35,623 nucleotides of DNA from Candidatus Omnitrophota bacterium. GTDB lineage: Bacteria > Omnitrophota > Gorgyraeia > B26-G9. Positions 1-35,194 of the stretch are shown here, one piece after another. The stretch's first letter is position 1; each line of letters opens with the position of its first letter. The translations under genes were made by a program, and so were the position numbers. The notes under the pieces are model-generated. The model saw only the letters and a program-made list of their open reading frames with translations. It made no database searches and had not been told where the DNA came from. The DNA is taken from contig QNCH01000001.1 of the NCBI GenBank assembly GCA_003645745.1, positions 1 to 35,623 on the forward strand, read 5' to 3'.

Positions 1-62
1 AGGCAAATACAGTAAATATTATTGATAATGGACAGCAGCGCCAAATAAGTAAACATGAGTTT

Positions 63-6000: not shown

Positions 6001-9000
6001 CATATACTCCTATGGATAAACTTAAAAATCTCGTTACATATAAAGATAATAGTATTGACCAAACTTACGCGTTAGAAGAATTGCCTGAAGAAGATGCCCC
6101 TATTATAGAGCCTGCGGCTGATGCTGACGCGGATAGCGGAGCAAATACTTTTGCTGATTGGACTGGGGCTGGAACTAATCTGACGATTATAGATAATAAC
6201 AATAATGGAATTATGGATGATGGAGATAGTGTGAATATCAGTAATGGCGACTCAACAGCAAATATGACAGTCTCTGAGGCGATTGGAGTTATACAACAGC
6301 AAACAGGCGTGAATTTGTCTGAAGGAATTGAGCTTAGCGCGGCAGAGATTAATAACCAAATTAGCAGTTCTGGTTATGGCGTGAATATGATTAATATAAA
6401 TTCTAATCAAACTACAATAACTTCCGCGAATAGCCAGGGCACGAGAATTTATACAATGGAGCATAGCCAGTTATCAGATGCGCAAAATAGTTCATATACA
6501 AATTATCTGAGCGCCGGTAATTTTCAGCAAGCAGAATGGCTGTTAAAAGCGAACCATTTATATACAGGCGGTAATGTCAGAGAAAATTTAAGTGACGGCA
6601 CAAATGTAGAGCTATCCCGTACTAATTTGTTAGCGTATGGTGATAATTTGTGTGTTACACGCACTGAATATGCGGAAATGCCTGCCATTGTTTCAGTAGA
6701 AGCATTTAAAGATGAGAAACTTAGCCACAAAGATGTGTACGGAGTTGCTGAAAGCAGCGCGGAGAATACAATATATGAAGTTTCAGGATTTGAGTTTGGC
6801 TTATCCGGAGAAGAAATAGTTGGGATTAGTTCAGCAGCTGATTATAGTTATACAGAAGGCGAAGATGATTATGAGATTAGCCAGGTAAATTTTGAAAATG
6901 GAACAGCAGTTAATTTTCAGAAGATCAATCGCAGATTAAGTGATTCAGATTATTGCCTGATTGAAGAAACAGGTTTTATTTATCACCGTGATGAAAACGG
7001 TAATATTATTAAGATTGAGACTGAAGAGACAAAAGCAACAAATAGCAGCGGCGGGCAGCAGGAGAATGAATCTATTAAGAACGCGCAAGATGTATTATCC
7101 AATATATCAGAGGTAGAAACAGAGAGCGAAGGCAATATTTATGAAGGTGTTGCAATGCTTTCTTCAGAATATATCAGCGGGTTTATCACAGCTGTTTATG
7201 ACTCTTCCAACATAGAAGAAAATACATTAAGGTACACTGATGAAAATAACATAACCTGGGAAGCAAGTAATGTTACTTTTGCTGACCTTAATTCTTTGAC
7301 AAACACTTATACAATAGATGCTGATTCTCTTGTTGCGTTGTCAAAAACGGAGAAAAATGGCGGGCTTTTGATTTGTTCCACCACAAATACCAGTATTACA
7401 GATGTTAATGATATTACTACAGGCGCATACAGCCTTTCAGACACGGAACAAAATGCGGTAATGTATGTAAAGGACAATGGAGACACCTATACTGCCCTTA
7501 ATGTAACTTTTAATACTGAAAGTTTAACTGGAGGCTATGATTTGGATTTAAGCGTTGATGCAAACGATAATTTAAAATATATCAGTGTTTATAATAAAGG
7601 CGAAGACGGTATAACCAGATCCACAATTAATATTGTGCTTAATCGCGGTAATGATTTGAGCCGCGCCAGTTATAGCTTGGCGGATTCTGCTCAGAATTCA
7701 TTAGAGTATAGGGATGAGAATGGGGATATTTATACAGCTGAGAATGTTAGTTTCGCTGGGAGAACTTTAGACAGCGAATATACTTTGGATTTAAGCGCGG
7801 ATGAAAATGGCGGTTTGAATTATGTTAGTGTTTATAACACAGACGAAAATGGAGTGGCAACAGGGACTACAAATATTTCCATTGAAGATGAACATAACCT
7901 TAAATCCGCGAGTTACAGCCTAACAGAAACCGCGAATAATTTTGTTCAATACACAGATGATGATGGGTGCAAATATAGCGCAGAGAATGTAAGTTTTTCA
8001 GGAGAAACATTGGATAGTGAGTACACCCTGGATCTAAGCCGTAACACAGATGGGGGGCTAAATAATATTAGTGTTTACGCTGTTGCCCAGGATGGGACAA
8101 TCAGAGGCACAGCAAATGTGGTAATTGAGGATGAGCATAACCTTAGTTTAGCGAGTTATGATGTTTCTAACGCGAAGCATAATTATATGCAATATATAGA
8201 CGAATCAGGTGTAGTGTGGAAAGTTTCTAATGTAGAATTTAGCGAAGGTACTTTAAGCGGTGCGTATCAATTGCATGATATTGCGGGTTTTAGTGATGAG
8301 GAGTTGCTCGGCAAGACATTGCCTAAAATAGCATCTGAATTTAGTGAATTAGTCAGTTCAGGGCCTTCTCAATATGCTGGATTAAAAGAAAGCAGGTTTG
8401 GCGCAGCCGGGAAGTATGATATTTCAGTTGATTTAAATGAAGGAATCGCGACTTACGTTCAAGACAGTGATTTTATTTTTGCGATTACATTAACAGAAAA
8501 AGAAGGAGCAGGCGAAGGAGTTAGTTTTCAGGCAGGTGATCTGATCAGCTATCGCAGCGTGAGGATTATAACAGAAGATAGAGTAATGACAGATGTTATT
8601 ACAGGCGGCGAATTTACGCTTTCAGCAGGCACATATACGTCAATGGTAGATTTATTAGAAGGCACAGAAACAGTATTTGCTGAGGATGAGAACGATTCCT
8701 CTTATATTTTTACTACTGTTGACCGGACAGCTACCTTTGATGACTCGCAGGAAACAGTTGATTTTAACGCCGGAGATCTTATTGGCGGCAGGTACAGCAT
8801 TGATTTAACTGAGGCTAAATTTATCACTGATCCTATAACTCAGCAGCAGGTAAGTATTGCCCCTGGCACATATACAGTAGCATTGGATTTATTGGAAGGC
8901 ACAGAAACAATAATTACTGATCAGGATAAAGGTTTTTATTATACATTCACCACCATTGATAGAGAAATAATGATTGAGAACGCGACTAACTTAGTTAATT

Positions 9001-12000
9001 TTAATGCGGGAGATTTTGTTGCGGGCAGATATGAAATTACTTTAACTGAAGACATCCGCCTTCCTGATTTAAATATAAGCGGCAAAGGCATAGGCGCTGT
9101 GATGCCGCAAGGCACGTATATCGTAGTTGTTGATATGAAGAGCGCGACACAGACATTTTTGGCCCCAAACAATGAAGAATTTTATTATACATTTACTACA
9201 GTAGGCCGCAGGGTAAAATTTGAAGGTATTGAAAATGATGTGATTATTAGTGTAGATGCCGGAGGTTTTATTGCAGGCAGGTTTGCGGTGCATATTGGCA
9301 AAGGTGTAAGCTATGAATTATTTGCAAGTAGGCTGCGTTCTTCTGGGGATATTAGCGCGTATGGATGGAGTGATGAGATGTCTGTAGAGTATGGTTACGC
9401 TGTTGAAGGTGACCATATTGCGGAATCTGATGTATTAGGCGGCACAAATACCATAATAGATGAAGAAAATGATTCTTTTTGGACATTTACTACTGTTAGG
9501 CGGGATCTTGCCTTGCCAGAACCAGCTGAAGGTTGGGGGCGTAGAGATAGTAGAACCAGACGCATTGAAAAAGGCGCTCTTATCTCTTTCAGATATCAGG
9601 CAAGAGTTGAGAAAGATATATCTCTTGACTACGGCGAAATTTTGGCAAAAGGAAATTATATTGTTGAAAAAGACTGTATAGCAAGAACGGAAACATATAC
9701 TAATAAAAGCGATGCTTCTTATTATACCTTTTATGTTGGGAGCAAAGAGGATTTATCCAGCTCCTATGATCGGTTAAGCAATCAGGGTATGAAAACAAGC
9801 CGGGGAAGGGCCAGGAGAAATCGGCAGATAGAAGAAGTGAGGAAACAGTTGATTTATATCAATGGCCCTGGCATATTAATCAAATCCGGAAAAGAAAAGA
9901 CTATAAGCTCAGAAGATAATGTAGGTTTTAATGATTTTCTTACCGGTCAACAGAAGCAGGTACAGGAGGGGAAATATTTTTGTGAGATTGATTATCTTGA
10001 AAAAATAGAGACTTTGAGTAACAAAGAAACCGGAAATATTTATAGTTTTGCCCTTAATAGTGTAGAGGTTGGCAAAGGATGGGAGAAGGGGTATATATTA
10101 GAGCGAGGAGATTTTATTGGCGGTAGATATACGGTTAACTTGGAGCAGGATTTGCCGATAACTGATTGGAAAACAAATCAGCAGGTAAATATAGGGGCAG
10201 GAGAATATACTGCTGTAGTTGATTTGCTGGAAGGTACAGAAACACTGGTTGACGCAGAGAATGATTTTTATTATACATTTACTACTATTGACCGAAGTTT
10301 GGCTGATACAGAACAAAGAGACGGTTATAATTTTTCTGCCGGCGATTTTATCCAGGGCAGGTATAGTTTGACCATTGGGCAAGAGACTGATGCTTCTTTG
10401 AGCTTGGAGGATGGAGTAGATGATATATCCGCGCAACAGGAATTATCTGTAACAGATCCTGTATCCAGCCAGCAGGTAAATTTTGCTGCAGGTGAATACA
10501 TTGCGCAGGTTGATTTATTAAAGGGCATAGAAATACTTATAGACCAGCAAAACACAGATGATAATTTTCACTATACCTTTACTACAGTGAGAATAAACCT
10601 TGCGCCTGAAGGTGTGGCTGCTGCTAATGTGCAGGCTGGAACACTTATTGAAGGCAGATATGAGGTTATTTTAAGCAGCAATATAAACATACTGGATGTA
10701 GAAACTAATCAAACCACAACTTTACAGGCAGGTGAGAGTTATATTGCTGCTTTAAATTTACTCGCTGGGCAGGAGGTTTTGACCACAAATTCAGGGGATA
10801 ATTTAGAGGCCACTTCTTACACTTTTATAATCAATAATCCTGCTGTTTCAAATGCAGCGGATAATTATATTTTTGATTTAAAAACAGGAAATGTGGTTGC
10901 CCCAAGGAATGTAACATATGATGCAGGGGGCCAGATTACCGGTTATGAATATTCTGAAATGTATGGGGCTTTAAATCATACAATTTCAGGCATAACCAGG
11001 GAAAATGACATAGCCGAGCCTGAAACACTGTCCACATTCCCGCAGTCTCAGATTATTGGCAATAAGGTTACAGGCTGGCAATGTATTAGTGATGACCTGA
11101 TTTCTGGGGAAATAGAAACAACTCAGAGAACAGGCATTACTTATGATCAGGAATTAAGGATTGCCGGATATACAGACAGAATTACATCTCCTGCTACACC
11201 TGAGTTGGTAACCACAAATATTGTTTCAGATGTAATGAAATGGGACGCGCAGGGCAATCCTTTAGAATATACTCAGGTTAACAGACAGCAGTCTCTTCTC
11301 GCGGAAGAATTTGAAAGACTTGGCGGCGGGCCTCAGGAAGTAACAATTAGTGTGACCGCGCGCGGCGGCGGCAATCATTCTATGCCTTATTTTGGAGTAT
11401 TTGTAAATGGAGAAGAAGTTAGCAGATGGCAGTTAGGGCATGACGTAAGTAATGTATATACAGTAACCTTAACGTTATCTCTAGGAGATAGCATAGAAAT
11501 CAGGCAGATTGATATTCCTAAACATGGCTCAACAAATTTAACTAAAGTAGAGGTTACGCTTGGAGATACTACTTTTAGTACAAATATGGATGACAAGCGT
11601 AATTCTGCTTCATGGGCGAGCGACTATCGTTTAGCAACAGACCAGATTATGCAGGGAGAGGATGTATCTGATGGATACTATCAACTTTATCCATACAAAG
11701 GCCGGGGGGCGGGATCAGTTGATATCACCGGCCAGATTTTTCTTAATAGTATAGAAACAAAAGTTGTCTCAGACACGCAATTAGATTCTGGGGGCAATCT
11801 TATTTCGTGGAAAGAAACTATAGTTACTAATGCCGCGCCGAATTTAACGACAGAAAGTGTATATACACGCACCAGTACTGGAGTGATTATTAAGTCTCAT
11901 CTTTTTGGCACAGATCCAAACGGCAATCTCAGAGGCAATAAAGACATTGAAAATGAAGTTACCCAGTCTTTAATTAACGTTTATAACAGCAGCTCTGAAC

Positions 12001-15000
12001 TTCAGCAGCAGTTTCCAGACGCGCTTAATCCTGACAATTCTTCTGCTAAACAAGAGCTGATTAACTGGGCACAGCAAACAGGTTACGCGGAAAACGCGGA
12101 ACTTTCAGCGTATGCTCCGGCTGAACAATTAACCATAGATTATTATACTACCAGCAAGATTACCTTTCTTGATGACAATGGTTCGTACAAAAGCGAATTA
12201 GCTGACGGCCGCGGCAATATAATTGTCACTAAAGAAATACATAATGCAGATGGCAGTATAACAACCACAACTTTAGGCGGATATGATGATGAAAACGCGC
12301 CTGGTTCAAATAAGAAGCATCGCGACCAGTCATGGGATACAAATATGGTGTTTAATTCAACGCAGTTTTCTACAGTTACACAATCGCAGTTTCAATATAA
12401 CGGCCTGGGGCAAAAAATTGCTTATGAGCAAAAAATAAACGGCGGCGATACACAGCATATTTACGGCATTACTTATAATCAGTACGGCCAGATGAGCGGC
12501 AAGGTAATGAAGGAAGGCCGCTCAACGACCTGGACCCATGATATAAAATATAATGCTTTAGATTTAAAAACATTTGAAATTGGAAATGCCGGTTATAAAT
12601 CGAGCAAATTTTCTTCATTGACAATTACTGAAACTACTTATCAGTATGACCAATACGGTATGGTCAAACATATAGATAAAGATGTTACCTATCATAAAGA
12701 ATGGGTGAAGAAGAGTTTTATGTCTAATCCAGTAGTTATGATTGTAGCTGCGATAATTATTGCTATAATCGCGGTATTTACTGCTGGAGCGGGGTTGGCA
12801 TTATTGGGAGTAGGTGGTGCGGCTGGGGCCAGCGCTATAGGCGCTGGTATGGCAGCAGTAAGCTCGATGTTTACAATGAGTTTGACTGTTGGCAGTTTAA
12901 TTGCTACATGCGGCGGCGCATTTATTGGCAGTATGGGCGCGAGTTTACTTGCTGGTAATAGTTTTGGTGATGCTTTAACAGCTGGCGCAATTGGAGCAGT
13001 TGGCGGACTTGTGGGCAGTGCGCTTGGCCCGCTAATGCAGGGATTCGGCGCTGGTTGGGCTGGAAATGCTGGCAATATAGTTAGTGGATTCAATCAAATG
13101 GGTACTATTGCCCAGGGGCTGGTGAAAGCTGGAGCTTGGGTTGGCAGTAAACTTGGTGGAGCTGCCAATTTGATTTCATCAGGAATTGGCAAAATTGGCA
13201 ATTTTTTCAGCCCTGCGATAAGCGGGATAAAAGATTTTTTTGCTCCGCTTACGTCGAAATTTTCAGAATTTGGCGGCAAGATTGCTGGAGCCTGGGGCAA
13301 AGTGAAGAATTTTGTAAAAACAAATATTGGCGATAAAGTGAAGAATTTTTATAATCACGGCACAGCTACTGTGCCGGCAACTACTACGCAGAAAGTTGTA
13401 ACTAGTATTGCTGACCGTGCAATGTATATTGGCGCGGTGGAAGGCTTAGACAGCGTTGGTGTAGGCAACGACGGCGCAATGATTATTGGGGGAGCAATTG
13501 TTGGCGGAATTATTGGGGGCAGCGGAGCTGGCACAACCTTTGAGCAGGGATTTACCTCAGGCGCAGTACAGGCAGGAGTTAGCCAGCTTGATTTAGGCGG
13601 CTGGGAAAATGTGGTTGGAGTTGCCGCAAGTGTTGCTGTGGATGCTAAGATTTCAGGTACTAAAATTTCAAAGATTCCAGCTGCTGAAATACAAAAGATA
13701 GCCGGATCTGCGGTATATACAGGTATGCAGAAGGTTGGGCAAGCTTTGGGTATTGATCCAACATTAACCAGTATTAACAGTATTTTGCTGCGGTCTCAAT
13801 GTTTAGATAAGCCTGAAACAGCGTTAGTTTCCGGAGTAACTAATTTAGCAGTAACCAGCGCGATTCAAGCTATAACCGGCAAAGAATGGTCTGAGCTTTC
13901 AAACACAGAAAGGCTTTTAGCTGCTGGAGTCGCGGATATATTCAGCATTGCTGCAACAGAAGCGTATTTTGCCTCAGACTCTGGGAATTTTAAAGATAAT
14001 TTTGAAAACAAGTTAAGGAGCGGGTTAGAAGCTGCATATACATTTGGAGCGCCTGATAATCTTACAACTGGTAATTTAAGCGATTATTTAGGCTCAGTAA
14101 TTGATTTTGGCAATGATTATATGGAAAACGGGTTAGCAGATTCTTTAGTTAACATCACCACAGATACCTGGATAAACCAGGCAGTTGATGAAATTGGCGG
14201 ACAGTACGGATTAATTGCCGGGATTTTCGGGGATGTGGAAACTGGCGGAGATATTGATGGCAGCCGGTATATTTTGCAGGAAAATGAAGATGGGACAAAA
14301 ATCAGAGTTTGGAATAACGGCAGTATTACTTATGAAAATAGTCTGGGTGAAGAGATTGGGCACAGGAGAAGCTTTAATTCTAATTTTGATCCTGCGCAGC
14401 TTGAGGGTAAGGTTGTATATGTAGAAGCGTGGGATAGTGGGAAACGTGATTATTATGCTTATAATCAGGATACGAATAAATTTATTCTCATTGGGAGTAC
14501 AGAACAACAGAAGATTCCTGAGCGTCCTGTATATAGTTTTAATTCTGAGTATACAGAAGAGTTTACCGAGATAATTAATAATGGGCTAACCAGTATAGAT
14601 GTACTTAATAACGGCTTAATGCCGATTACACAATATGATTATTTATCTACCTATATGCCTCAAATGTATGAGGGTAATTTTTCTCTTCTCAGTTCTGTGC
14701 CTGATCAAACAGCTCCGGCAATAACAGCAATTACCTATAATCCAATCGCTCAGATTTATCAATATCAATATACAGACGGCAATACAGGATTATATAACCA
14801 GAACAACCACAATTTTGCCTTAGCTAACCAGAATGGGCAGGTTTTAGGCAATTGGACATTTAATCCTGCGCAGGGAACATCTTTATATGATTATTATATA
14901 AACAATAACGCGGTTAATCAGGTTACTGGTCAGTCACCAGCGTTTTCAGGCATTGATTTTAATAATGGTATTGTGTATTCACAGGACAATGATCCTAATG

Positions 15001-18000
15001 CTGCTCATAACCAGGCTTATCTGCTTTCCGGCCAGGGCGAAGTTGCAGGAGAGGTTTATTTTACCCCTAATCGTACAATTGTAGATACCGGTTATGATAC
15101 ATTAACTACAAATATTGGCCTTTATCCTGGAAACAGCCTGATGCAAAATAGCGCTGGTACTTTTGATGTATATTTTGACCCTACGCAAGGCACAATCATT
15201 AACGCGCAGGATTCTAATGTAGGCTTTAATTCGGTTATTCCGGCAAACGCAAATTTCTTTACCGGAGATGCTGGTATAAACGCAACTACAATTAATTTAC
15301 ACGGCAATACAGATATTATAGATACAGGAGTAGAAGAGATTTCTACTTCATCTGGACAGGGAGGCTCAGGCGGCCAAGCAGGGACTGCGTATTTACAGGA
15401 AAATAACGGCAGTGTCTGGGTGCATGCAGGTGAGAATGCGTCTCTTACAGTAAATTATAATCTGCAAAACCAGGCAGTATTTAATCATGGCCAGAAATTT
15501 ATGATTGATGGCAATTATCCGGTTACGATAAATAATGTTAATACACATTCAGGCCTGGTTACAGGAATAGAAGGCGGGATTCAGCCTTCCATTGACGCGA
15601 TATTTGAAACTGAAAGTTTAGGCTTTGTACAATCCGTTAATTACGAAGGAGTAATTGGTTTGCATTCAATGTCAGTGCCTGCAAATGACGCAGTAATATT
15701 AGACAACAGCCTGCTCGGTACATCATTGCCTGAGCTTGGCATAGGTGTTAGCGGCCAACAACTTAAAATAAATAATATTAACGCGGACGGCAGGGTAGTT
15801 GGGCTGGGCATTGATTCGAGTTTAGGCGTAAACGCGCAAAGCCAGATAGGTTTTAGGGACAATTATTCAGAGCAGACAATAAGTTTAAGCAGTGATTTGT
15901 CACCGGGGCAGGAAGTTCATATAGGCTTAGGCTTAAATGGTGGTTATGTATTAACCAAAGATTTAGAGATTGACCCGTTTGCTGGAGGCGGCAGAATAAA
16001 CGCTGGATCTGCTGTTTCTGATTTAACCATTGGCGCTGATGGGAGTGTGACAAGTTTAGAATTTTCCAATATGGGTGTAAGCGTTGATCTGTTTAAAGGA
16101 GAATCTTTTGGCATAGGCCAGAATATTTATGATTACAGCCAGAACGATAATTATTCATCAGGTACTTCTACAGGCGCGGGCAATGATGTTTGGGTAAACA
16201 AAGATTTAAGTAATAATTTTAGTTTGCAAAACGGCAGAATAAACATTTCAGAAAACAAAGGCGTAACATTTAACAGCGGAGATAGCGTAAGATTCTCCGG
16301 TTTATCTGATCAGGACGTGATTACAATTCATAATGGAGATGCGATTGAGTTTAAGGGCAATACGTTTGGCTTACACTTAACCAATGCCCTTCCATACACA
16401 GAAGACATTAATCAGCAGATTACCCTGATAACTAATCAGGGCAAAACAAGGACTGATTTATCAGCTACAGAAGTAATCGGCGCTGACGGTAAAGTTCAAG
16501 CGTACTATGGATTTGAAGGTTTTAGCAGTCAGGACGCTGGAGATGAAGTAAGGTTAGGCGAAATTGCGTATCAGGTAACCAATGTTGGCGGCAAATATAA
16601 ATTAACTACTGCCCTTGAAACTGAAAATTTGCAGCAGCAATACACCTATAATAATAAAGAGTATTCTCTTGGATTAGAAAAGGGCAATATTTTATTTACC
16701 CCTGATCTTATGGGCAGGCTTGTGTCAGCAGAAGAAGTAAATATGGGCAATGGCTCTAAGCTAAAAGAGCTTTCAATTAATCCTGGGGCAATAAATAAAG
16801 AAGGAGTAATTACACAGGCAGGCATAAACACAGCGACTGTGTATTTATCTTCTGCTGACGGTCTTGATATTGCAGAGGATTTGGTAATTAATTCAGATAA
16901 AATGATGTCCAGCGCTCAAACAACGAATAATTTCTTAGAAGTTTCTAAAGATCCTGAAAACATGACTTATCTTGACCGCGATAATCAGATAATGCACGGT
17001 ATTGTGCATTTGCAATCAGACGCATCAGGCCAGGTTGGAGTTCATTATGTTTATGGTCAGCAGTTTGAGATTAGTAATGCAGACACAGTAAGAGACAGTG
17101 TTTTAATTAATGGAGTTGCCGCAGGCAACGGAGAGTGGATGGTATTAAACAATACAGCTGTGTTAATTAGTGAAACTGGCCAAATGTGGGATCTTGACGT
17201 TCTAAACGGCCAGGGCCAAAACGCGAGCGCTCTGGTAAATATAGATACACATATGGAACAGGGAGAAAAAGCAAATCAATATACTATTTATGGGCATACA
17301 GCTAAATACGAGTTTACGCAGGAAAACATTGGGTACACAGTTTTAAAGAACGGGCAGGAATTTAAGGTACAGGAAATTGACGGCGAGATAGGGTTAGGGC
17401 TGGATAATCTTAGTGTAACCAATCCTGAAGACAATAAAGTTTATTTGCACACTGATTATATTTCAAATGCAGAACTGATTAAAGGCGGGTTAAATCTTTA
17501 TGACATTGACAACAGGCTGAACACACAGATTGCTTTTAGGGGACAGGATAGTGCAGGCCCGTCCAATGGTGTGCTTAATTATGTATACACCTCTGGAATG
17601 GACGCAAATAAAGATTTTTATATACAGCAGAAAACATATCAATTTTCTAAAGATCATAAATACACTGGTTTTAATCTAAATACAAGCACATATTTTAATG
17701 ATCAGAGTCTGCAGGTAAGGACAGAAAATCAAACTGGCGCGTATAGTTTACGAAAGATTGACGCAAACGGCAGAGTAACAGAGTATAGTTTTTCCACGCA
17801 AAAGACACAAACAGATATCTCTAAAGAAATTAATGATTTAGGCATTCATGGCGTAAGCATAAATGATCAGGACAAGTTCAGAGTAGTCAGCTTAGGTTCT
17901 GAGGCAGTTACGTGGCTGCAAGGCAAAGAACTTGGGATTAAAGCAGACGGCATATTTGGGGCAAACACACAAACCTCGGTGTCTAATTATCTTAATCCTG

Positions 18001-21000
18001 AACTGGGCAGAAACACACGTGAGCATAATCTTGGAGTTATTGGTTATTACAGCGGATTCCTAAATTCTGAGAACACTGGTTTACTTTTAGGCGGCATAAA
18101 TACGCTTCAAACACAGCAGGCAATAGAGCAAAGTAAAGATGCTCTTACCGGCAATTGGGTGCAGGGGGAAAATGGCGGCAAAATTTATACTGGTGATATT
18201 ATGCTTGGCGGTTTATCTGTTGAAAATGTTACGGTTGAATTTAATTCTGATGAAAAGATTGAAAAGATTAAGCTTAATGAAGAAAATAGCGGCAAAGTAT
18301 ATCTTATGCCGGGAGAAAAGGGCAATGTAGGTATAGATAAGCAAGCATATGAATTTAGCGCTGGAGCAGAAGGAGCACAGGAGAAAATTTATCTTGGGCA
18401 AATGGATGAAAAATTCAATGTAACCTTGTCTGCTGATTTAGCAGTTAAAGATTTTGAAAATGATTTTATCATTATGGCTGATTATCAGGGAGTGCAGGCA
18501 GAGTTAACTTTAGGCGCAAACGGGCTAACCCTAATAAATGGCGTGTATCAAGCTAATCAGAAAGTTTATCTGCATACAATCCCAGACGGCGGCGGCAGTA
18601 CCAGCCCAACTACTAATATTACAAATGTTAATATTCGAGATTATAATTCGCCTGACACATATTTAATCAGCGGCATAGTTGAAGTTAGAGGCGGGCAGGA
18701 ACTTATTTTTACCGAGGGTGCGAGTTTAAGTGTTTGGCAGGAACCAGGTTCTACGTTTACATATAATGGCCAAACCTGGGTGCAAGGCTCCTGGGATGTT
18801 GGCGCGAATGGCCAGTTAGAGGCGCGTAAAGATGAGTCTTATGTTCAGTTATTTAAAGAAGGCGGGCTTGATTGCAGAGTATCAGGCATTGGAAGGCCTG
18901 ATCATGGGATTACCTGGAAAGAGATTACCGGAGATACCAGTATTGACTCAAAAGTAAGTCTTGCTTCAGTTGATCCTACATCTATATTTTATGGAGGTAC
19001 ATTAGGCATAGAAAGCGGCTCTTTAGTAGCTAGGAACGCGCCTTATCTGCGTGTAAGCACAGATGAGATGGGTAATAAAGTTATGTTTGCTGGGCACACA
19101 GATGAAAATGGCTTAAGGCATGATATGCGGTATAGTTCTTCTTATAGCCATCCTTCAGAAACAGATTCTTCTATAGACCCTTATTTCGCAAGGATGGATG
19201 CCATACATCCTGAGGACGCGATTAATTTTACAGTGTCTAATTTAGCAGCCAATAATGAATCTGCCTGGCGTGTGTTCAGCGCGCAAGTAGAGATTAGTGA
19301 CGCGTCTTTTGCGGAATTTTTGGCTGATATTGACGCGGGAATTGCATCAGGGGCAATCAGCGAAAACCCGACATTTAATTTTTCTGTAGAAAGTACAGAC
19401 GGCAAAATCGCGAGTGTAACAAGCACCTGGGAATTAAAAAATGGCAGAGAATATGTTCCTGTTTATGAGCAGGAGTATGACGGCAATCCAATAGCTTTGG
19501 GCCAGACATTTGATGTAATCTTCAATCAGGGAACAGACAAAGAAATAACCAGGAGTTATGTTGTAGAAGAGTTTGGCAGCGAGCTGAGGTTTATGTCTGC
19601 GAGCCGGGTTACAGAAAATAAACAAGCAGTTATTTTAAACCAAACTCGTGAGATTGATTTAGCACAAGGCCCGGTTTATGAACTCTATAATTTGCAAAAC
19701 AATGTTTTCAGCTTAAGAGGCACAAAAGAAGTAAACGGGCATACTGGAGTTGGTTTTATTGGTGATAATGAAGAATTTTTATTGCTTAACGGCAATAAAG
19801 TTTCTAAAACAGAAAATACCTATTTTGTTAATCAAGGCATAGGTTACAGCATAACTGACTTAGGCACAGGCCTTGACAACGCGTATATTTCTTCAGGTGT
19901 TGGAGGAGCAGGTGGAGAGTCTAAAGAAAATAAGATCAGGATTTTTGATAGAAACGGCGAAGTTTATATTGCCAAGGATTGTTTGTTTACCATCCAGAAT
20001 AACCAGTGGATGGTTACCGGCTCAGATTCTTTAGAAAATATTGGAGATACAAAGATAAAAGTAATTAATGCTAATGGAGACGACCAGTTTCTCAGGGGCG
20101 GTGTATATGCAAGAATTAGTGAAGGCAAACTCAATACTTATGTTTCAGGAGGAGTTGTAGATTATAATGATAAATGGTCTCGTTATGGCAAGAATGTTTT
20201 AGAACTTCCAGGCCGCGGAATTAAAGCAGTGTTTGACGAAACAGACGGTGTTTGGAGCGCTCTTGGCAAAACTGTAAGTATTGGCTTAATTGGCGGCGCA
20301 GCAGTTACCGCTTCAGTATTTGGCGCAGTAGAAATGGGCTCTTTAATTCCAGGAGCAATTAAGAGTGTTGAGGGTGGATTTATCAGCAAAAGCGCGCTTG
20401 GTTTAACCGGGCTTGAAAGCGGTTCAATTAGTTATGGTTTAGCAGTAGGCGCGATAAAATTAGCAGGAAGTGTAGCTGTCGGGTCAGCAGGTATGGCTGG
20501 GATAGAAGCAGTTAGGGGCGGTTCATCTGAAGAGATTAAAGAAGCAGCATTTGAAGGCGCGAAAATGGGCGCTTATTATTGGGGACTGTCAGGAGCTTTG
20601 GGCCTTGTTTCACACGCTTCTAAATTAGAGCTTAGCGCGGAAGCCGGAGAGTTGTTTACTGGTAATGTGTTTCAACGCGCGGGACAGCGCTTAGCTGCTT
20701 ATGTTGGGCGCGGCCAGAGTACTCAAAAATTGGCTAATGTGTTAGGCAAAGGAGCTACGCGTGCAACTTACGCTGGACGTATGGCAGCAGATACAGCTTT
20801 AGGAGTAGCAGAAACCAGCCTTGGTGTTGGCCGGATATCTATACCTTTCCATGCAGGGGCAAAAGTAGTTGAAGCATTAATAGAGACTACTCCAATAGAA
20901 GATCATATCTGGGGAGTAGAAAAGCTTGCTGAATTTGGGCAGGGTAATATTGAAGACGCGATTTTACAGGGTTTTGTTTTTGGCGCAGTGCTTGGACTTC

Positions 21001-24000
21001 CGCCTTTGAGATGGGCTACCGGAGCAGCAGCTGGGCTGGGCAGGAAAATGTTAAGTAAACCTGGAGAGATTTTGTATGCAACCCCTCTTGGCTCTACTGT
21101 TGGCAGAGCAGCGGCAAAATTAGTTAATGACCCAGTGCTTAAAGCAGCAAGTATGGGCGGAGTATTTAGCGCGATTTCTTCAGGCTCAGAGATTTATCAG
21201 ATTCTTAATGATGATTCCCGTGATTTATTCAGCAAAGAATCACTTGAAGATATTGCTATCTCAGGAGCGGTTGGCTTTGGTATGGGTGTTGCTTGGTCTT
21301 TAGGCAGCAGTGCTGCTCAAGGCATTGGTAATTTAGCTAAATCAAGTTTGTTAAAGCGAACTGCTAATGCAGGGGTAAAAGCGGTTACGTCTGCAAAGAA
21401 TACTTTTTCTATGCTTGCTCGTGAAGGTTATGTAGAAAATACATTTTCTGGAATGCTGCAAACCTGCGGTGTTGATCCTTATACAGCAGAGATATTAGCT
21501 GAACTTTTGCCTGAAAAAGGCGGCGGGGCATCTGCTAAGGCGTTTGCATATACAAATATGGGTTCAGTAATTAGTTATTCTGAGGATAGCCAAGGCTTAG
21601 GAAATAAGATTAATTTAAGCTCGTTAAATACAGAAGAAGACAGCAGAATAGAAGCAAACTTAACTAGATTAGAGGCAAAGTATAATTTAGAAGATGGAAC
21701 ATTAACTAACCGATTAAATTCAGGCAGTTTAACTGCAACTGGTGTGATGAGTACAATTAATGAAAGCGGCAGTTCAGGTATAAGCGTATCAGAGGTATGC
21801 TCAGAGGTTGGCATTAGCGTTGGCATGGTTCAGGAAAGCCTGAGTTTGGATGCAGCGCAAATGGAGAATGAGTTTGGCATAAGTATTGAAAAAGGCAATG
21901 CTTTTGAAGGCACAACATTATCAGAGCTTTCTATACTTGGCGGCACTCCTGAGCATTGGGAAAATCAAGTAAGTTTAGAAGAAGCTAAAAAGCTGGGCAT
22001 AGATATTTCAGAATTTCAATCACCGGGAATAAGTGATACAGATACTATAATCAGTATAGAAGCGAAATTAGGCAAAGATTCTGAGTCTGCGCAAAAATTA
22101 CGCAGCCGGATTGGAGATATCAGCATAGCAGAGTATGCTAAAGTTAAAGGAGTTAGTCTTGAAAGTTTAGCAGAAAAGAGCAATTGTGAGCTTAAAGCCT
22201 CATTAGTTAGCGGGGATTCCGCAATGAGTGAATTTGCCAGAGCAAAAGGTTTAAGTATTAATGCGGAGTTTTTGGCGCAATATGATTTAAATCTAGGATC
22301 TATACAAGGCAGATTAGAAGGCAAAACAATTGAAGATAAATTAAGCGAAACAATAGACGCGGAATTAGCGGAAGTTAAAAAGGATTTAAAATTCAACGCG
22401 GAGCAATTAGCGAGCTTGCCTGCAAAGGGAGAGACAAGGACAAAAGAGAGATTAGGTTTAGAGCAGACAAAACTAATAAGCGCTAAACAACAATTAGAAA
22501 CCTTGCGGGAAAACATAGGGCAAATAGAAACAACAAATGAGCTTAGTGCAATTTCAGAAAAACTTGGAATAGAAACTGGCCAGTTATTAGATAAGGTTGG
22601 GATTAAAGTCAGTGATTTATGGAAGATTAATGGAAAGGATAAAGAACAATTTGCAAAAGATGAGAATGTGAAAATAGCTCCTAAGTACGCGCTTGATCAG
22701 GAGCAATTAATGGGTGAGGGTGAGAATGTAAACGCTTTAATTGAAAGCTTGATTGCCGGCAATCAAGCGATAAGTTTGGTTGTTAAAGATGATGCAGGGA
22801 ATCTTGTTTTAGAATTTAATCAGGCAAGCAAGATTGAAGTAAAAGCATTTGACAAAAAGACTGGTATTATTCATATAGCAGTGGATAGTTCAGGGATAAA
22901 ACAGGAATTTGATCTTACAATTGATCAAGATGGCGGGCTTTTAAAAGTTGAAAGCGGCAAAATTTCAATTAACAGCGAGGTATTTGAACTTGAATCTGCG
23001 GAAGATGATGATGGCAATATTATCTGGAAAATCAAAGAAGATATTGGCAATAAGGCGCAGCAGAAAATGGCAAGAAGAATGAACACGATTTTAGATAAAT
23101 TTGCGCAGTCTAGAGGTTATGAGCTGAGTGTGCGCAATGATGTAAACCAGTTGGAATCAGTCTTAAAATTAGCTTTTGACCCTGAAACATTCTGGGAAAT
23201 ACCTGCAGGCACAGGAAAAACCAAAGCTATTTTTACAGTAGCTGCAGCATTTACTGCTGAGTTTACAGGCAGAAAAATAGTAAATGTTTTGCATAATAAG
23301 CCCTTACTTAAAGATGCAGTACAGGATGATTTTAAAGGAAACGGAGAATTAGGAGAAAGAGGCGAATTTTTCCAAAGCCTTGCTGTAGTTTCTCAAGCTG
23401 ATTTTGCTGATCTTGTGGGGCAGGATAATGTTGATGCTTTGATTGAAGATTTAATAGATCAGGGCTATATTGATGCTGAATTAAATATTTTGCCCGCGTT
23501 CAGGCAGACAAATGAGAAAGATTTTAGTTTAGTATGTCAGGATAAAGGTTATGCAATGCAGAGCGCGCAAATATATACGGTTTTAGAAACAGCAAGCAAA
23601 GGCATAACTTCATTGCAATTTACGCAGGAAGATTTAAAGATTTTAGAAAAGGGCGGAGATAACGCAGAAAAGCTGATTCAAAGAATTAATGATGCTGATG
23701 TTATTTACATAGAGTCTGATGCCTGGGGATTTCTTGCACTTGAAGCGCAGCAGGCAAATAAATTTAATTGGGGCGAGAAAAAATGGGTTAAGCAGGCACA
23801 TAACGCGATTTTTGGAGACAGTAAGGTAATCCATGACGAAGTTGATACAATGTTCGGCAAGAATCGTTTTCAGCAGGGACAAGATGCGCGCATATTAACA
23901 GACACAGAAATAGACGCGATTTTATTTGTGCACAAAGCAATGCAGGGAATAGTTAAGCAGGGAATGGTTGAATCTAAACAAGACTTTGATAATCCTGTAG

Positions 24001-27000
24001 AGCGGGTTAAAGCAGAAAGAGGGTTATTAGAATTTAGTGTGCAGCATCGGGACACTTTTGAAGATAGTACAATGTCTTATGAAGAGTATAAAAGCTTAGC
24101 AGACCCGTATAATTATAATGTTAAAGGCGTAGCTTATAATAAAAAAGCTAAAGAGGCTTTAGTTGAGTATATTAATGAAAACGGTATAACTACTGAATCT
24201 GGGGATAAACACGAGTTTGAAGTAAAGTATGACAACGGAGATATTGTGCTGGTTAATGAGAATGGGACAAACGAGAAAATATTAACTACAGTTAAAGCTT
24301 CTTTATCCGGCAGAGTAAAAGTTCTGCGCCAGTATGAAGGCGGGGCAATGGGTTATGATGATGCGAGCGGCTTAATGAAACCTTTTGCCAATAAAAACTT
24401 AGCGCCTGATTTACAGATTAGCGACCCTTATCTTGCCGGCCATACAGAAGTTGTGGGCAAGGATTTAATGTCAGAGGAATTAAAAACCAAAGGACAGCAA
24501 GTAGAGCCTCTGCTCAGGAAAATGCGTCTTTCAGGCCGTGCATTAATTACCACCATGGCCAGGGCAATGAGAATGGCCAGGAAAGTTGGCGCAGATATAA
24601 GCGGATTTTCCGGCACCATTGCTCCTGTTTCGCAGTTATCCAGCGCGTTTTACGGCATAAACACAGTTTTAAATAATGCTGAAAATAAAGGTATGCGTTT
24701 ATTTGATTCTGAAAATAAATTAGAGAGAACAGATACTGAATCAGAAGCTTTGCAAAGCATAGATTTAGAGAACGGCAAAGTTCATGTGTGCTTAACAGGC
24801 TTAAAAGGAATAGATGAACAGGTTATTACAACCGAAATGCTGGAAATGTATCAAAGAGAAGGCTATACAGTAATATTTAAAGATCAGCAAACAGGCTGGC
24901 TTGTGTATAGGACAGATAAACTTGAAGCTGGAGAGCTAAGTGGTTTAGTTACCGCAGAACTCCAGGAAAACACAGAATTTAAAGAAAAGAAATTAACTGC
25001 TGAGCAAGTAAACCAGGCTTGCGCGTTAATTGTAAATAAAGTTAACAATGATACAGAGATTAATTTAGAAGTAGTGTCTAATTTGCATAACGCGAAAATT
25101 AAAGCAGAGCTTATTACAGAGATAGAAACAGAATTGAAGATAACTTCAGAGCAGGCACAAGCTTTGGTTGATACAGCTTTAAATTCAGCGAACAATTTAT
25201 TAGTTGAACAAAGGGACACAAATCAGATTGAAGGATATTTAGAGAAAGAAAGAACAGCTGAAGAAAAAGTTATGTTTTTCTATAATCTTAGCGCTTGCCG
25301 CGGCACAGACGTTAGTTTTGCTGACCGTTCAATTAAAGGAGTAATGGATAAAGTTGAAGGCGAAGTTGATGTTCATGCTTTTTTTGACCCATTAAGTGTT
25401 GATTTTGATGTGGAACAATTATTAAAAAGGGACCGCGGCTTGAAATTGCAGAATCCAGCCAACAATGGTAAATGGGAATTTGTGTTTAATGAGACAAATT
25501 CAGAAAACAGCGGATTTGTTTTTGAGAATCAAAAAGATCCTGAGAAAAATTATACACCTGTTTATAACGCGTTAACCGTGCATTATGTGGGCAAAGTCAG
25601 TGATGACGCGCAAACAGTTGATCAGAGAACCGCGAAATATATTTTGGAACAATATGTTAGCCCTGAGCAGGCGCAAGCAGTAATGGCAGGATTAGGAAAT
25701 GCTCAGGTTGAAGTAAGCGCGTTTACTCAAAAATTAAAGGACAATGGAATCAGCGAAGAGACAATTGCAAAGGTTACTGATTTTATCAAAATAAGTTATG
25801 TTTTTGCGCAAAACGGTATTTCCGAGCAAAAGGATATGATGTATAAAGGGTTGTCAGACATCTATGACACACTTACCGGCGAATTTATCGACAGTTTAAT
25901 TGAAACAGCACATAATCCAATAGAAATGAAAAAGATACAGGAAATGCAAAAAGATTTTTATGAATCTTTTGGTTCAGACACAAACATTAAATTAATTGAA
26001 AGCGCGCCAAGCGCTGTGGACGCGTTACAAACAAAATTAAATAATATTATTGATTTTTTTGAGTCCAGAAAAAATAAGGGCAATGACCCAGTATTTAGCG
26101 TATTATCGAAAACAAACAAGCAAAAGATTCAGGCATTTATTGATGCGCGCCCAAAGTTAAATTTAACTGGCAAAATTGATCATAGAGCTGTTCCTATAGG
26201 TATGGCAGATAGTTTAGCGCAGGCAGTTGATTCAACCAATAAATTAATTAAAGTATCTGATTTGCCGACAATAGTTTCAATGAGCGGTAAAGCGCACACT
26301 ACAATTACCGCGCAGTCTTATGAATCCAGAGAAGATAGTATGCAAAATTTTACAGACTCTGAAAAGAAAGAGTTTAAACAGGGACTTGAACAAAGAGGCC
26401 TTTTAGACGGCAATACTTTGAGCGCTTCAGGTGTAGTTGCGATGAATGCATTGGAAACTCTGGAAAAAGCGGATGATAAAGTTAAAACTGAGTTAATGAA
26501 GCTCGCGGAATCCAGAGGCAAAGACCTGAGGAATTCAATTGCAATGCTGCTTTGGTTTTTATTGGATGAAGATTTGTTTTCAGTAAATGAGCTATCGTCT
26601 GCAACAATGGATAAACTAATTCATATAATCGCAGTGATCCAGTCTTTTGGAAAAGCGGTTAATCGGAACGCGCTGATTGGCAAAATAAAAAATATTCAGC
26701 ATACAGATGATCCTCTTGCTCTGCCAAAAGCAGTATTAGCAGAGCTTGAGAAAGATATAGGGCAATACAAAGATTTATCTAAGAAGATTACTTCTGAGGT
26801 ATCTTCTATTGCTCAGGAAGACAGGCTCAACACTGCAAAAGCAATAGTTTTAGAATCATCTTTTGATCATGCAACAAAAGTAAAGATTATTACCAATTTA
26901 GAAGGGATTCAGAATATAGATGATCCTTTTGCTTTAGGCAAAGCAGTGTTTGGCGCGATTGAATCCAAAGGCAGCATTGGGAAACTATCATTATATGAAG

Positions 27001-30000
27001 CATTATCTACTCAAATTGCAGTTCTGGATTTAGTTGCTAATGATCTTAAAGATACAAAATTAAAGATAGCGTATTTAGAACAGGCAATTGCCAAAGATCA
27101 GAGTAACCTAAATCTGAGCAATGGCCTTAAAAAACTGCCATTAATGTTGAGTTTAGGCCTTAAAGCAAACCAATTACAAGGCTCTGGATTAAAACAAATT
27201 CTTAAGAAACTAAAAGAAACTTTAACAATGTCTGGGATGCCGATTAATACAGGCTTAAAAGAGAAATTAGAGAATTTAAAGCAGGTTTATGCAAAATTTG
27301 AATTAAGTATTCCAGAGTTAAAAGAAATAGCAGATAATTCAGGCATAGATCAGTTAAAAGAAAATCCTTTAAGTTTAGGTTTATTATTTAATCCTGAGCT
27401 TGAGCAAACTCAAGTTACTAATGCGGAAAAATTAAGTGTTGTGTTAGAATTTTTAAGCGAACACTCAGCTGAACTTGCAGATGAGTTTGGCAAGCTGAGC
27501 TTAACAAATGTAACTGATTTTGGCAGTTTATCAAAGGATCAGCAGGAAACTATACTTAGTTATTTTGCAAAAGCAGGCCATGATTTAAAACCTGAAGAGT
27601 TTTCTAATTTACGGAGTATGCAGTCTATGCTGGGGAATGTCGGCGGATTTGGCATAGCTTCAATGCTGCAAGGGCTAATGGACAAGGTTTCAGATGATAA
27701 ATTTGCTGGGCAGGCCTCTGGTGCAGAGGCTGCAAGCTTGAGCGTAGAAGCTGAGGAGCAGAAAATTACTTTAGTGAACTGGTTTGCCGGCACAGATGTT
27801 AGTATTGGAGAATATTATGTAGCTGCAGCAGAGAGTAAAATAAAAGAAGCTCAGAAACCTGAGAATACGGAAAATAAAGCAGATTTAATTAGAAATGCAG
27901 TTGGTAATTTTAATAAAGTTATTGATAATCTTGAGAGTAGCGCAGCAGAAAGAATTAGCGCGTGTTTGGGGTTAGCAAGTATTTATACTGATCAGAATTT
28001 GGGTTATCTAACCCCTGGTAATTTAACGCATATAGACGGCTTGCTTGATGGAAAAACTAATAATGTAAACTCTTTGCTTAAAAACAAAGAACTTTCCGCC
28101 AAGCAAAAGAAGCAGTTTTTAAATCAATTAGCCCAGACAGAGCTTAGATTAAGTGATGCTTATCTGGGGCTTAAAACTCCTATGCCGATAAATTCTGTTA
28201 CCTATGGCATAAAAGCATTAAATAATATTAAAAAATTGCCTGAAGATGCAAGAGAAGATTTTGATTTTGATTCTGCGGCTTCTACACTTGCGCAAAGAGC
28301 GCTTAAAATTGAAGACAAAGGCTCTGCGATTATGTTCTTAAAACAAATCAGCGGGTTTGTTCCTGATCATGGCACAGTGCATTATTGTTTAGGCACAGTT
28401 CATCTAGAGCAGAAAAATCTGACTAAAGCAGAGCAAAGTTTTAAGCAGGCAATAGCTAAAATGCCAGATACAGATAAATTAAGAAATAACGCGTATTTGA
28501 GCTTAGCTGAAATTTACCTGGAACAGGAAGAAGCAGAAAAAGCAGAGCAAATTCTTGTGCAGGGTATGGAGAATTTTGTTGCGCCGAACGTTAAGCTTAG
28601 CGCAGCAAAAAGAAATCAGGCCATAGATGCTTATTTTGTTCCGGCATTTAATATGGCAAAAGATAAATTAGGCAATCTCAACCTTTGCGCTGAAATTCTG
28701 CAAAAGCGTCATTCTAAATCTAATATCCCGCTGGTGTCTTTATCAGACAGAGTCAAGGCAGCAGCGTATGCAGCAGCAGTAAAGATTGAACAGGGAAAAG
28801 CATTTAGCGCAGATGATTTTGCACGTGCTTATGGAATCAAAGATGTTGAACTGATTAATAAGTTTGGTGGGGCAGTAGGTAATTTGCGTGCAGCTAAAGG
28901 AGCATATAATGCAGACAAGTATGCAACTGCTGCAATTAATATTATTGCAGAGTTGGTAGGAACAATAAATACTCCATTAGAAAAAGCAGAAGTTATTGAT
29001 TCTCAAACAGTATTATCTGCTGATCCGAAATTTCAGTCCGCAGTTGATACTTTGTTAGCAAGCTTTAATGATTTAGCGCTTACAGAACAAGAACAAGTTG
29101 CGGCAAATAAATCTTTAGAGTCTTTCCGCAAAGGAGAGGTTGAACAGGCATTTAATATTTTGCACACAGGCTTAACCGTAAATAGTTCTAAAGATTATAG
29201 AATGTTGGTTGTTGGTTTTGCGATTGTGAACAAATTAGAAAGCGGAGCTGGTTTGGATAAAATAAGTAATTTAGTAACTAATTATGCGATGAATGCTGAA
29301 CCGAAAAGTAAATTACTGAATTTTGCGAATAGATTGATTAGTAATAAAGACAGCTATTCAGAATCAAATTATTTGATCAGTGTGTGTTCTCAGACAAAAG
29401 CTTTGTTTGAAAAAGACGTAGAATTAAGTTCGAATGTTGCTGGCTTTACTGAAACAAACGATATGTATAAAATGCAGGTTGGCAAAGATGTGTCTGAACA
29501 AGCAACTGTTGCGCAGGAATTAGCTGGTTTAGGTATTGTTTTGGGACAGGGCAAAGATTCAAAATATGTTACTATAAATGATTTTCTTAACGACAATGGA
29601 ATTACTGAAGCTAATTCAGCAATTAAAATTACTGCTGGGAATATAACCTATTTTGCGCGAACAGAAGGATTGGGAAATACTCCTGAATTAAGTATGCTGA
29701 TAAAAGTAAACAAAGGCAAAGTAGAAACAGTTGAAATTTATACTGCAGGAGTTTTCTCAAGACAGGTTCAAAAACAAGAAGATAAAGACAATTATTTATC
29801 AGCAATGCAGAGCCAGCCTGATCTGAAGAGGTTTGTGGTTGCCGCAGACGGACAGGTTGTTCAGGAACAGATTAGAGTTGACTCGCAGACTCAAGGTACA
29901 AAACAAAGCATGGGTTTTGATTCATTACGTAACCAGGTACTTGAAGCAGTCAGCGGGACTTTTAGAGAAAATAATGCTGGTAAGATTAACACTTTGCCCG

Positions 30001-35031: not shown

Positions 35032-35034
35032 TGT

Positions 35035-35194
35035 TAGGCTCAAACGTAATTGGTTTGTAATTTTATGACATTCCCCTGTGCTGCATCTTGAAACGTTTTT
35101 CATTCGCAAATCTTTAGTGCGCCTAAGGTAGAACGTTTCAAGATGCAGCACATGAAAACGCCTAAATTTTACAAACTAATTGCGTTTGAGTATA
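35035..35194. repeat. Palindromic MITE/REP-like element, copy B (160 bp)
   Basis: The outer arms are ctcaaacgtaattggtttgtaa / ttacaaactaattgcgtttgag. The perfect 21-bp inner stem is tgtgctgcatcttgaaacgtt (35078-98) / aacgtttcaagatgcagcaca (35132-52). The two stems are separated by 16-nt internal loops. The element abuts the permease start codon with a 3-nt gap. Confidence 0.85.

Follow-up and report, generated by a model that had tools for sequence, protein, structure and literature searches.

On which side of the cytoplasmic membrane does each part of a protein reside when its chain of some 10,000 residues is interrupted twice by hydrophobic stretches? This question is raised by a giant open reading frame (ORF) in a stretch of 35,623 nucleotides (nt) from a Candidatus Omnitrophota bacterium (contig QNCH01000001.1 of assembly GCA_003645745.1), the whole of which was analysed and is called here ‘the window’. 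In an earlier note on this DNA, it was proposed that two clusters of putative transmembrane (TM) segments at nt 12729-21330 divide the protein into three super-regions and create a topology puzzle: with an odd number of spans in cluster 1, the N-terminal repeats would lie in the cytoplasm and, with an even number, they would have to be exported without a signal peptide. The reading favoured here, which is given an even chance of being correct, is that of an inner-membrane-anchored giant surface or adhesion protein of the ‘dockerin-type’, with its N-terminal and middle regions outside the membrane and a SecA-like ATPase and TPR tail inside. It corresponds to the ‘even’ case, the supposed difficulty of which is not established, the start of the gene being missing. 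In other words, the hydrophobic stretches are real but the puzzle depends largely on a start located outside the window.

The ORF lies on the + strand at nt 63-30044 and comprises 9,993 codons when counted from a TTG at nt 63, and the same frame runs without a stop from base 3 of the window to nt 63, being thus open to the 5′ window edge. Because the window (or the contig) begins within the gene, the length of the protein exceeds 9,993 amino acids (aa), its true N-terminus lies outside the window and all residue numbers are offsets (aa n = nt 63 + 3(n − 1)). With this numbering, nt 12729-21330 do correspond to aa 4223-7090. Self-comparison also indicates that the first 640 visible residues duplicate aa 2012-2656 in diverged form (48-52% identity), and these 640 residues are not what a signal region looks like. 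That the protein lacks a signal peptide cannot be claimed, because no stop closes the frame before the window edge, and the ‘export without signal peptide’ horn of the dilemma, which takes nt 63 as the start codon, is not supported. As for its other ingredient, the span numbers of either cluster cannot be fixed by hydropathy.

The division into three compositionally distinct super-regions is borne out by a sliding composition classifier, which switches at aa ~4200, ~4500 and ~6600, at points that coincide with the clusters. Acidic, poor in Lys and with abundant Asn, Thr, Ser and Gly, the N-terminal and middle regions have near-identical compositions (Jensen-Shannon divergence 0.009), whereas the C-terminal region, helical and rich in Lys and Glu, diverges from both (0.023). 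Within aa 1-4217, only a single weak hydrophobic window occurs. At aa ~690-1130, Pfam detects, above cut-offs, Dockerin_1 (5.6e-15; 55.7 bits for a cut-off of 22.9), EF-hand_7 (8.6e-11) and RHS_repeat (1.5e-10) and, as judged from these matches, the dockerin and EF-hand modules are Ca-binding and of extracellular type. The label ‘YD’ given earlier to the N-terminal region is appropriate for aa ~690-1130 but not for the 3,000 residues adjoining cluster 1. Unlike in RHS/YD-repeat toxins, where such repeats build a shell ending in the RHS core and a toxin domain comes directly after it, the RHS_repeat matches are confined to around aa ~696-711, and nothing RHS-like is detectable by Pfam in aa 3600-4300, next to cluster 1. 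The N-terminal region also contains a large internal duplication (nt 165-2084 versus 6096-8030, i.e. aa 35-674 versus 2012-2656, with 48-52% identity) and tandem repeat families (aa 394-705, 723-1277 and 2376-3615), the copies of which are offset by ~80-150 aa and share 24-44% identity. All internal repeats (aa 35-3615) are located inside the N-terminal super-region and none connects the two hydrophobic clusters, between which self-comparison shows no similarity.

Cluster 1 (aa 4218-4493) is real, in the sense that it combines a genuine membrane anchor, TM1, with a charge-free block beyond shuffle expectation. The most hydrophobic 19-mer of the protein (aa 4224-4242) belongs to TM1, with a Kyte-Doolittle (KD) value of 2.97 and a summed Hessa scale of -3.45 kcal/mol, to be compared with a minimum that averaged +1.2 in 200 whole-protein shuffles (extreme -3.6). 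Residues D, E, K and R are absent from aa 4218-4302 (85 residues) and aa 4304-4354 (51 residues), while runs of this kind did not exceed 59 residues in 500 shuffles (mean 33). GxxxG patterns reach a density of 5.1 per 100 aa in the Gly/Ala-zipper block versus 0.4-0.5 in the flanking super-regions (~10-fold), and values of 5.1 to 17 per 100 aa were recorded; this combination of marginal hydrophobicity and GxxxG repeats suggests helix-helix packing in the membrane. The region that follows the block, aa 4355-4440 (86 residues, 11 of them Lys), has a hydrophobic moment of 1.07 versus 0.27 ± 0.14 in shuffles, a value reached in none of 2000 (0/2000). It probably lies on the membrane surface and would face the cytoplasm. 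From the block to the second zipper (aa 4355-4470, 116 residues), K + R amount to 13 and D + E to 7, a charge surplus that fits a cytoplasmic loop by the positive-inside rule. A 133-codon ORF overlaps cluster 1 on the antisense strand (nt 12692-13093, −); most likely it merely results from the GGN/GCN richness of the coding strand and is not a gene.

Cluster 1 matched nothing in Pfam, PHROG or PDB, and the Pfam glycine-zipper families (Gly-zipper_Omp, Gly-zipper_YMGG and glycine zipper 2TM) gave no match at E ≤ 5. Word-indexed searches among 5.8 billion protein clusters yielded no homologue at E ≤ 1e-3, either for aa 4100-4720, which cover cluster 1, or for aa 7600-8400 and 2011-2700. Like glycine-zipper modules in general (the Pfam Gly-zipper families, pore-forming toxins and bacteriocins, hydrophobic segments of phage tape-measure proteins), cluster 1 displays repeated GxxxG and small-xxx-small patterns and long charge-free stretches. 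Unlike them, it stands in the middle of a protein of 10,000 aa, beside a very hydrophobic TM helix and an amphipathic helix of 86 aa.

Cluster 2 is of a different kind, being supported by conservation. An exhaustive phmmer search with aa 6735-7934 recovered 12 proteins, nearly all fragments of 3,300-5,200 aa. By local alignment, the closest relative (P0001; phmmer 1.4e-96) is collinear with aa 5648-9311 of the giant protein and the next closest (P0002) with aa 6110-8909; in these alignments, no relative covers aa 1-5600, cluster 1 included. The order of a ‘cassette’ consisting of a hydrophobic cluster, the EAYVEG signature, a helical linker of ~600-700 aa and an ATPase (motif I) is conserved in P0001, P0002, P0005, P0006, P0009, P0011 and P0012 and in the metagenome loci L005 and L006. 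The full cassette is present in seven other giant-protein fragments, and two further fragments end before the ATPase is complete. Over about 540 aa, its hydrophobic cluster contains 3-8 Gly/Ala/aromatic segments of moderate hydrophobicity, with the conserved motifs G(F/L)GVG..x.F..GK and FGxG…QGFxFG..LxP (LAPF), and some relatives have segments of TM grade in this domain (P0005, -0.3 kcal/mol; L005, seven segments with a minimum of -0.1 kcal/mol). In the protein studied here, cluster 2 comprises 32% Gly/Ala and 15.7% charged residues and has three marginal windows only (aa 6738-56, 6793-6811 and 7064-82). Thus, cluster 2 is real by conservation while its hydrophobicity is weak and, because the cassette is conserved and some relatives have TM-grade segments, it is best interpreted as a conserved membrane domain that has a Gly/Ala-rich and weakly hydrophobic form in this protein, and not as random glycine-rich loops. 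Searches of Pfam, PHROG and PDB with cluster 2 gave no match.

Some additional features of the family deserve mention. In the linker (nt 21750-21890, aa ~7231-7277), a weak sub-threshold Pfam match concerns DUF7646 (E 0.0011) and HTH_41. A subfamily of the relatives (P0005, P0006, P0007, P0009, P0011 and L007) carries in its C-terminal parts a conserved zincin-like motif, ERFGHELCHTD or RHELTHED, and extra strongly hydrophobic helices after the ATPase (e.g. aa 2936-2984 of P0011); in the giant protein of the window, neither an HExxH motif nor a strong hydrophobic segment past aa 7092 was found. The P0001, P0002, P0003, P0005 and P0009 genes and the L005, L006 and L007 ORFs each run into a contig end or a scaffold gap.

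Between the clusters lies the middle region, the Asn/Gly/Thr-rich character of which is as described before, its length being 2,243 aa. From aa ~5648 on, it is homologous to P0001 and P0002, and Pfam finds no match over it. The peptidoglycan (PG)-binding-like motif that had served to place this region in the periplasm exists, and P0001 and P0002 carry similar strings. However, the placement finds no profile or structure support, since PG_binding_1 (PF01471, a three-helix domain of ~57 aa) gave no Pfam match at E ≤ 5 in fragments covering aa 5300-6599 and aa 5937-6000 no PDB match at E ≤ 10. The motif is therefore weak evidence for sidedness.

As stated in the earlier note, the C-terminal region contains a P-loop ATPase. 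Motifs I (IPAGTGKT, aa 7713), II (HDEVDT, 7924), III (GFSGT, 8181), V (SACRGTD, 8410) and VI (QLLKRDRG, 8452) of superfamily 2 (SF2) were found, the actual Walker A being PAGTGKT, which escapes the strict expression [AG]x4GK[ST]. Among ten family members, Pfam detects ResIII in nine (9/10) and DEAD in four (4/10). Sequence and profile searches of PDB see the P-loop and nothing significant beyond. A model of the domain computed by AlphaFold2 (AF2) from a ten-sequence alignment has a mean predicted local distance difference test (pLDDT) score of 66 and, in Foldseek searches of PDB, its top match is SecA 3jv2 (6e-6), then 5eul, 1tf2, 6itc and 5k9t; SecA entries make up most of the top 15 matches (E 6e-6 to 1e-4), with TM-scores (template modelling scores) of 0.23-0.31 for this model. 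Like SecA, a preprotein translocase motor with DEAD-like NBD1/NBD2 and a PPXD insertion, the domain has an SF2 core of two RecA folds that displays motifs I, II (DEVD), III (GxxGT), V (RGTD) and VI, and a large insertion of about 250 aa between motifs II and III. In SecA, the PPXD sits after motif II. Unlike in SecA, there is an extra expansion of ~100 aa between motifs I and II, no sequence-level SecA signal is found (Pfam, PDB profiles), and the domain, being part of a giant protein, follows a membrane domain of its own to which it is fused, with no scaffold or wing identified; according to the literature, the SecA-like domains of giant proteins are devoid of scaffold and wing. On the basis of the model, the ATPase is tentatively regarded as SecA-like in layout and nearest fold, membership in the SecA family not being established. 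An ATP-dependent two-RecA motor places the C-terminal region in the cytoplasm, in agreement with what had been proposed. The NCBIfam scan gave TPR-type matches alone. Homologues of the ATPase region were found neither in viral contigs nor, by tblastn, in plasmids, and PHROGs provided nothing of use for the giant protein.

A layout can be proposed from these elements. The N-terminal region (at least 4,217 aa, with its Ca-binding dockerin/EF-hand modules) would lie outside the cytoplasmic membrane, and the middle region (2,243 aa) on the same side, because of their similar compositions, the dockerin/EF-hand modules and the positively charged amphipathic loop. Cluster 1 would be a membrane hairpin joining the two with an even number of spans: TM1 would run out-to-in, the Gly/Ala-zipper block would be buried or interfacial, the Lys-rich amphipathic helix would rest on the cytoplasmic face and the zipper at aa 4471-4493 would run in-to-out. 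Through cluster 2, which would act as a conserved polytopic or re-entrant membrane domain, the chain would pass back inside, so that all the elements beyond it (EAYVEG…IPGxGG motif, helical linker, SecA-like ATPase, TPR region) would be cytoplasmic. Held at the membrane by cluster 2, the ATPase would probably help to move or insert segments of the giant protein, in cis or on new copies. A signal sequence encoded before the first base of the window probably initiates the first crossing of the N-terminal region. The positions of these elements and of the neighbouring genes are given in Table 1.

Table 1. Elements of the giant protein and neighbouring genes in the window, in order of position (residue numbers are offsets counted from nt 63)
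Feature	Residues (aa)	Position (nt)	Strand	Remarks
Giant ORF		3..30044	+	9,993 codons from TTG at nt 63; N-terminus outside the window
Dockerin type I, EF-hand and RHS(YD) repeat region	~690-1130	2130..3452	+	Pfam, above cut-offs
TM1, VVMIVAAIIIAIIAVFTAGAGLA	4224-4246	12732..12800	+	Sole strongly hydrophobic helix of the protein
Gly/Ala-zipper block	4247-4354	12801..13124	+	One charged residue in 108; 3-4 marginal hydrophobic segments
Lys-rich amphipathic helix region	4355-4440	13125..13382	+	Hydrophobic moment peak at 98-100 degrees
Second glycine zipper, GAMIIGGAIVGGIIGGSGAGTTF	4471-4493	13473..13541	+	Candidate return span of the membrane
Middle super-region	4494-6736	13542..20270	+	2,243 aa; Asn/Gly/Thr/Ser-rich, acidic, poor in Lys/Arg
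PG_binding_1-like motif, GSEAVTWLQGKELGIKADGIFGANTQTSVSNYL	5945-5977	17895..17993	+	Sequence resemblance, not statistically supported
Cluster 2	6737-7092	20271..21338	+	Local copy of the conserved Gly/Ala/aromatic multi-segment hydrophobic domain
Family signature EAYVEG..S..LQ..GvP...AE.IVEfIPGxGG, here EGYVENTFSGMLQTCGVDPYTAEILAELLPEKGGG	7121-7155	21423..21527	+	Family alignment
SF2 two-RecA ATPase	7653-8491	23019..25535	+	Motifs I, II, III, V, VI; ~250-aa insertion after motif II
TPR repeats	~9438-9505	28374..28577	+	Pfam (near aa 9440-9505)
1,061-aa ORF, N-terminus MKKYGFFRQVSVVVVWSFLIANLGMYLPAARLVYAQ		30629..33814	+	Signal-peptide-like N-terminus; downstream of the giant ORF
LptF/LptG permease		33943..35151	−	Marks a diderm organism; best relative 57% identical, in a Candidatus Omnitrophota metagenome-assembled genome

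Several observations weigh against this layout. The spans were judged by hydropathy scales. The Gly/Ala segments of cluster 1 other than TM1 score +2 to +5 kcal/mol on the Hessa scale, and windows below 5.5 kcal/mol number 10 in the real sequence and about 10 in shuffles; beyond TM1, only the clustering of these segments and their lack of charge are significant. With scores that are positive and shuffle-like, the true number of spans is not readable from hydropathy, and the Wimley-White octanol scale brings no discrimination (25 windows in the real sequence versus about 66 in shuffles). The N-flank of TM1 (DKDVTYHKEWVKKSF) is slightly positive and its C-flank is charge-free for 108 residues, so that the charge-difference rule alone would favour an N-in orientation. 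Having no homologue, cluster 1 has a layout without evolutionary support. In cluster 2, all segments are positive on the Hessa scale (+2 to +5) and shuffle-like when taken singly, the AF2 model (8-sequence alignment) is uninformative with a pLDDT of 36, and the candidate spans of the domain vary from 3 to 8 across relatives, and thus parity is not established. As to the ATPase, SecA_DEAD (PF07517) and SecA_PP_bind gave no match at E ≤ 1 in the giant protein and nine relatives, and the helicases DinG (rank 4), XPD and DdmD come close behind SecA, with TM-scores of only about 0.3.

Some of these same observations lend themselves to the main rival, a single-anchor explanation in which only TM1 crosses the membrane, the helical segments of the Gly/Ala runs and of cluster 2 being soluble or peripheral. 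All that lies past aa 4246, the beta-looking middle region of 2,243 aa included, would then be cytoplasmic and the N-terminal repeats would be outside. TM1 is indeed the sole window with a negative insertion energy, marginal windows occur about 10 times in shuffled sequence and cluster 2, with its 15.7% of charged residues, has a family-mean hydropathy that never exceeds about 1.5 and an AF2 model showing no confident helical bundle. Nevertheless, the composition of the middle region matches that of the dockerin-bearing N-terminal region and not that of the C-terminal region, an uncharged stretch of 85 + 51 residues is very unlikely in a soluble segment, the relatives have TM-grade helices in their cluster-2 domain, and conserved Gly/aromatic motifs such as QGFxFGxxLAPF look membrane-embedded. 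A single anchor is therefore considered unlikely.

Still less probable is that the protein, or pieces processed from it, leaves the cell as an effector, the clusters being latent pore-forming or translocation modules destined for the membrane of a prey or host. Hydrophobic delivery regions of this type are known in large clostridial toxins, and comparable features exist in the Gly-rich repeats of MARTX and in glycine-zipper toxin domains. From what is generally known of toxins, amphitropic pore-formers typically combine a Gly-zipper composition with hydrophobicity that is marginal, the RHS and dockerin repeats are toxin- or adhesin-like, and a predatory or epibiotic lifestyle has been proposed for Omnitrophota in the literature. 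However, TM1 (KD 2.97 over 19 residues) is too hydrophobic for a soluble state, and the tail, with its SecA-like ATPase and TPR region, depends on ATP and would hardly be of use outside cells. Moreover, no toxin domain, signal for a type I secretion system (T1SS) or C39 domain was detected within the window, and the family is chromosomal, with at least one relative among housekeeping genes.

Also of slight likelihood is a polyprotein or internal-start scenario, where several products would arise by proteolysis or internal initiation, each cluster serving as N-terminal signal-anchor for the product that follows it. The topology problem would vanish, for example, for a product beginning at Met4220 (MSNPVVMIVAAIII…), where the succession of KKSF-MSNP and a hydrophobic helix resembles a classical N-terminal signal-anchor. 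The conserved core starts only at aa ~5648 and is seen in relatives without visible upstream parts, and it has been proposed in the literature that C39 or S8 peptidase domains cleave giant proteins. Against this stand the absence of a peptidase domain within the window and of a stop or frame change in 29,982 nt, and the fact that the relatives seemingly starting near the core are all 5′-truncated by contig ends or gaps. A start at Met4220 is in itself unlikely, because no ribosome-binding site precedes it: no Shine-Dalgarno-like sequence is found before ATG 12720, while the next gene has AAAGGAGG. Finally, an artefact (assembly chimera or gene fusion by sequencing error, with clusters that would be membrane parts of separate proteins) is scarcely credible. 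In its favour, the first 49 nt of the window have no exact match in the genome and metagenome contigs searched, the 1,061-aa neighbour has no exact record, and the N-terminal part and cluster 1 have no homologues; against it, the frame is unbroken over 29,982 nt with a positive GC skew (G over C) on the + strand that is uniform over the ORF, the internal repeats are diverged (31-52% identity) and are not assembly duplicates, and relatives are collinear with aa 5648-9311 through cluster 2 and the ATPase.

The architecture considered here and its ambiguous topology are already published for Omnitrophota giants (West-Roberts et al. 2023, bioRxiv 10.1101/2023.11.21.568195; 2026 preprint, 10.64898/2026.06.07.730766). 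In the first of these studies, dockerin-type Omnitrophota giants are TM-free over most of their N-terminal part and have C-terminal TM anchors followed by SecA-related domains; it was suggested that the adjoining TM regions might anchor the SecA-like module, which might export the giant itself. Furthermore, TMHMM and DeepTMHMM differ on span number and localization, full-length giants carry signal peptides near their N-termini, and most giant genes are followed by PilZ genes. In the second study, 916 long Omnitrophota proteins were surveyed, 39% with a signal peptide plus TM segments and 46% with TM segments only, and it was noted that membrane insertion of such lengths has never been validated. 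The protein of the window is a very divergent addition to these known dockerin-type giants. Like them, it has an Omnitrophota neighbourhood, dockerin/EF-hand repeats, a TM-poor N-terminal part and TM anchors toward the C-terminus followed by an ATPase with SecA as top structural match (the SecA assignment being tentative), and PilZ genes lie directly downstream of two of its relatives. Unlike the West-Roberts set, in which giants were defined for working purposes by ≥30,000 aa, it has 9,993 visible codons in a frame open at the 5′ edge, no TSP3, discoidin (F5_F8_type_C), GNAT or C39 domain was found by Pfam over the whole ORF, the ATPase falls short of Pfam SecA_DEAD, and a second anchor (cluster 1) is located 2,243 aa upstream of the conserved one. 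The explicit cluster-2/signature/ATPase cassette, the anatomy of cluster 1 and the absence of a close homologue may be new.

Giant surface proteins exist in other bacteria. LapA and MpIBP are giant Ca-dependent surface adhesins of RTX type that are exported by a T1SS and retained in the cell envelope. From general knowledge of these adhesins, the protein studied here resembles them by a very large, acidic, repeat-rich and Ca-binding region of extracellular type and by partial retention in the envelope. It differs from them in that searches revealed neither RTX nonapeptide repeats nor a T1SS C-terminal signal nor a retention module, and in that its C-terminus consists of a cytoplasmic-type ATPase and a TPR region.

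Concerning the neighbourhood of the giant gene, the LptF/LptG permease has a single relative in a scan of species-representative genomes (GTDB r232), with 57% identity. Because this relative sits in a Candidatus Omnitrophota metagenome-assembled genome, the permease points, as indirect evidence, to a diderm Omnitrophota-like host. The 1,061-aa ORF shows weak homology, over about 160 aa (E 1e-9), with the gene that immediately follows P0002 in L002, an adjacency that suggests a conserved partner gene. This ORF has no Pfam match; it is made of repeated helical units with the motif ILPQVK(S/T)T.AAV..GT.EQKTEA and is preceded by a strong ribosome-binding site, AAAGGAGG. The intergenic region before it (30045-30628, 584 nt) is unusually long and symmetry-rich, with two perfect 20-nt palindromes (30116-30135 and 30492-30511), 23-nt inverted repeats 87 nt apart (30432-30454 / 30542-30564) and 10-nt inverted repeats (30515-30524 / 30573-30582). 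Rfam gave no match anywhere in the window. Small PilZ-domain genes occur directly downstream of P0005 and P0009 (L003, 12998-13372; L004, 13218-13577), and none follows the giant gene of the window itself.

The question of how tiny-celled bacteria produce proteins of 10,000 to over 100,000 residues, bring them out of the cytoplasm and anchor them has been raised explicitly for Omnitrophota giants. For 5′-truncated giant genes, claims of a missing signal peptide are unsafe, as seen here and in the loci of all nine relatives examined. The cassette, for its part, is a concrete and clonable unit of about 1,800 aa for tests of topology and translocation. A bolder view, which is a slim prospect, is that this cassette would constitute a protein-translocation device that is complete in itself and is fused to the cargo it moves. 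Cluster 2 would then form or gate a channel, the tethered ATPase would thread thousands of residues of the Ca-folding ectodomain across the inner membrane independently of SecYEG, and cluster 1 would serve as a second, lineage-specific anchor, setting the register of two exported segments relative to each other. If true, such a device would represent a new export route for giant proteins.

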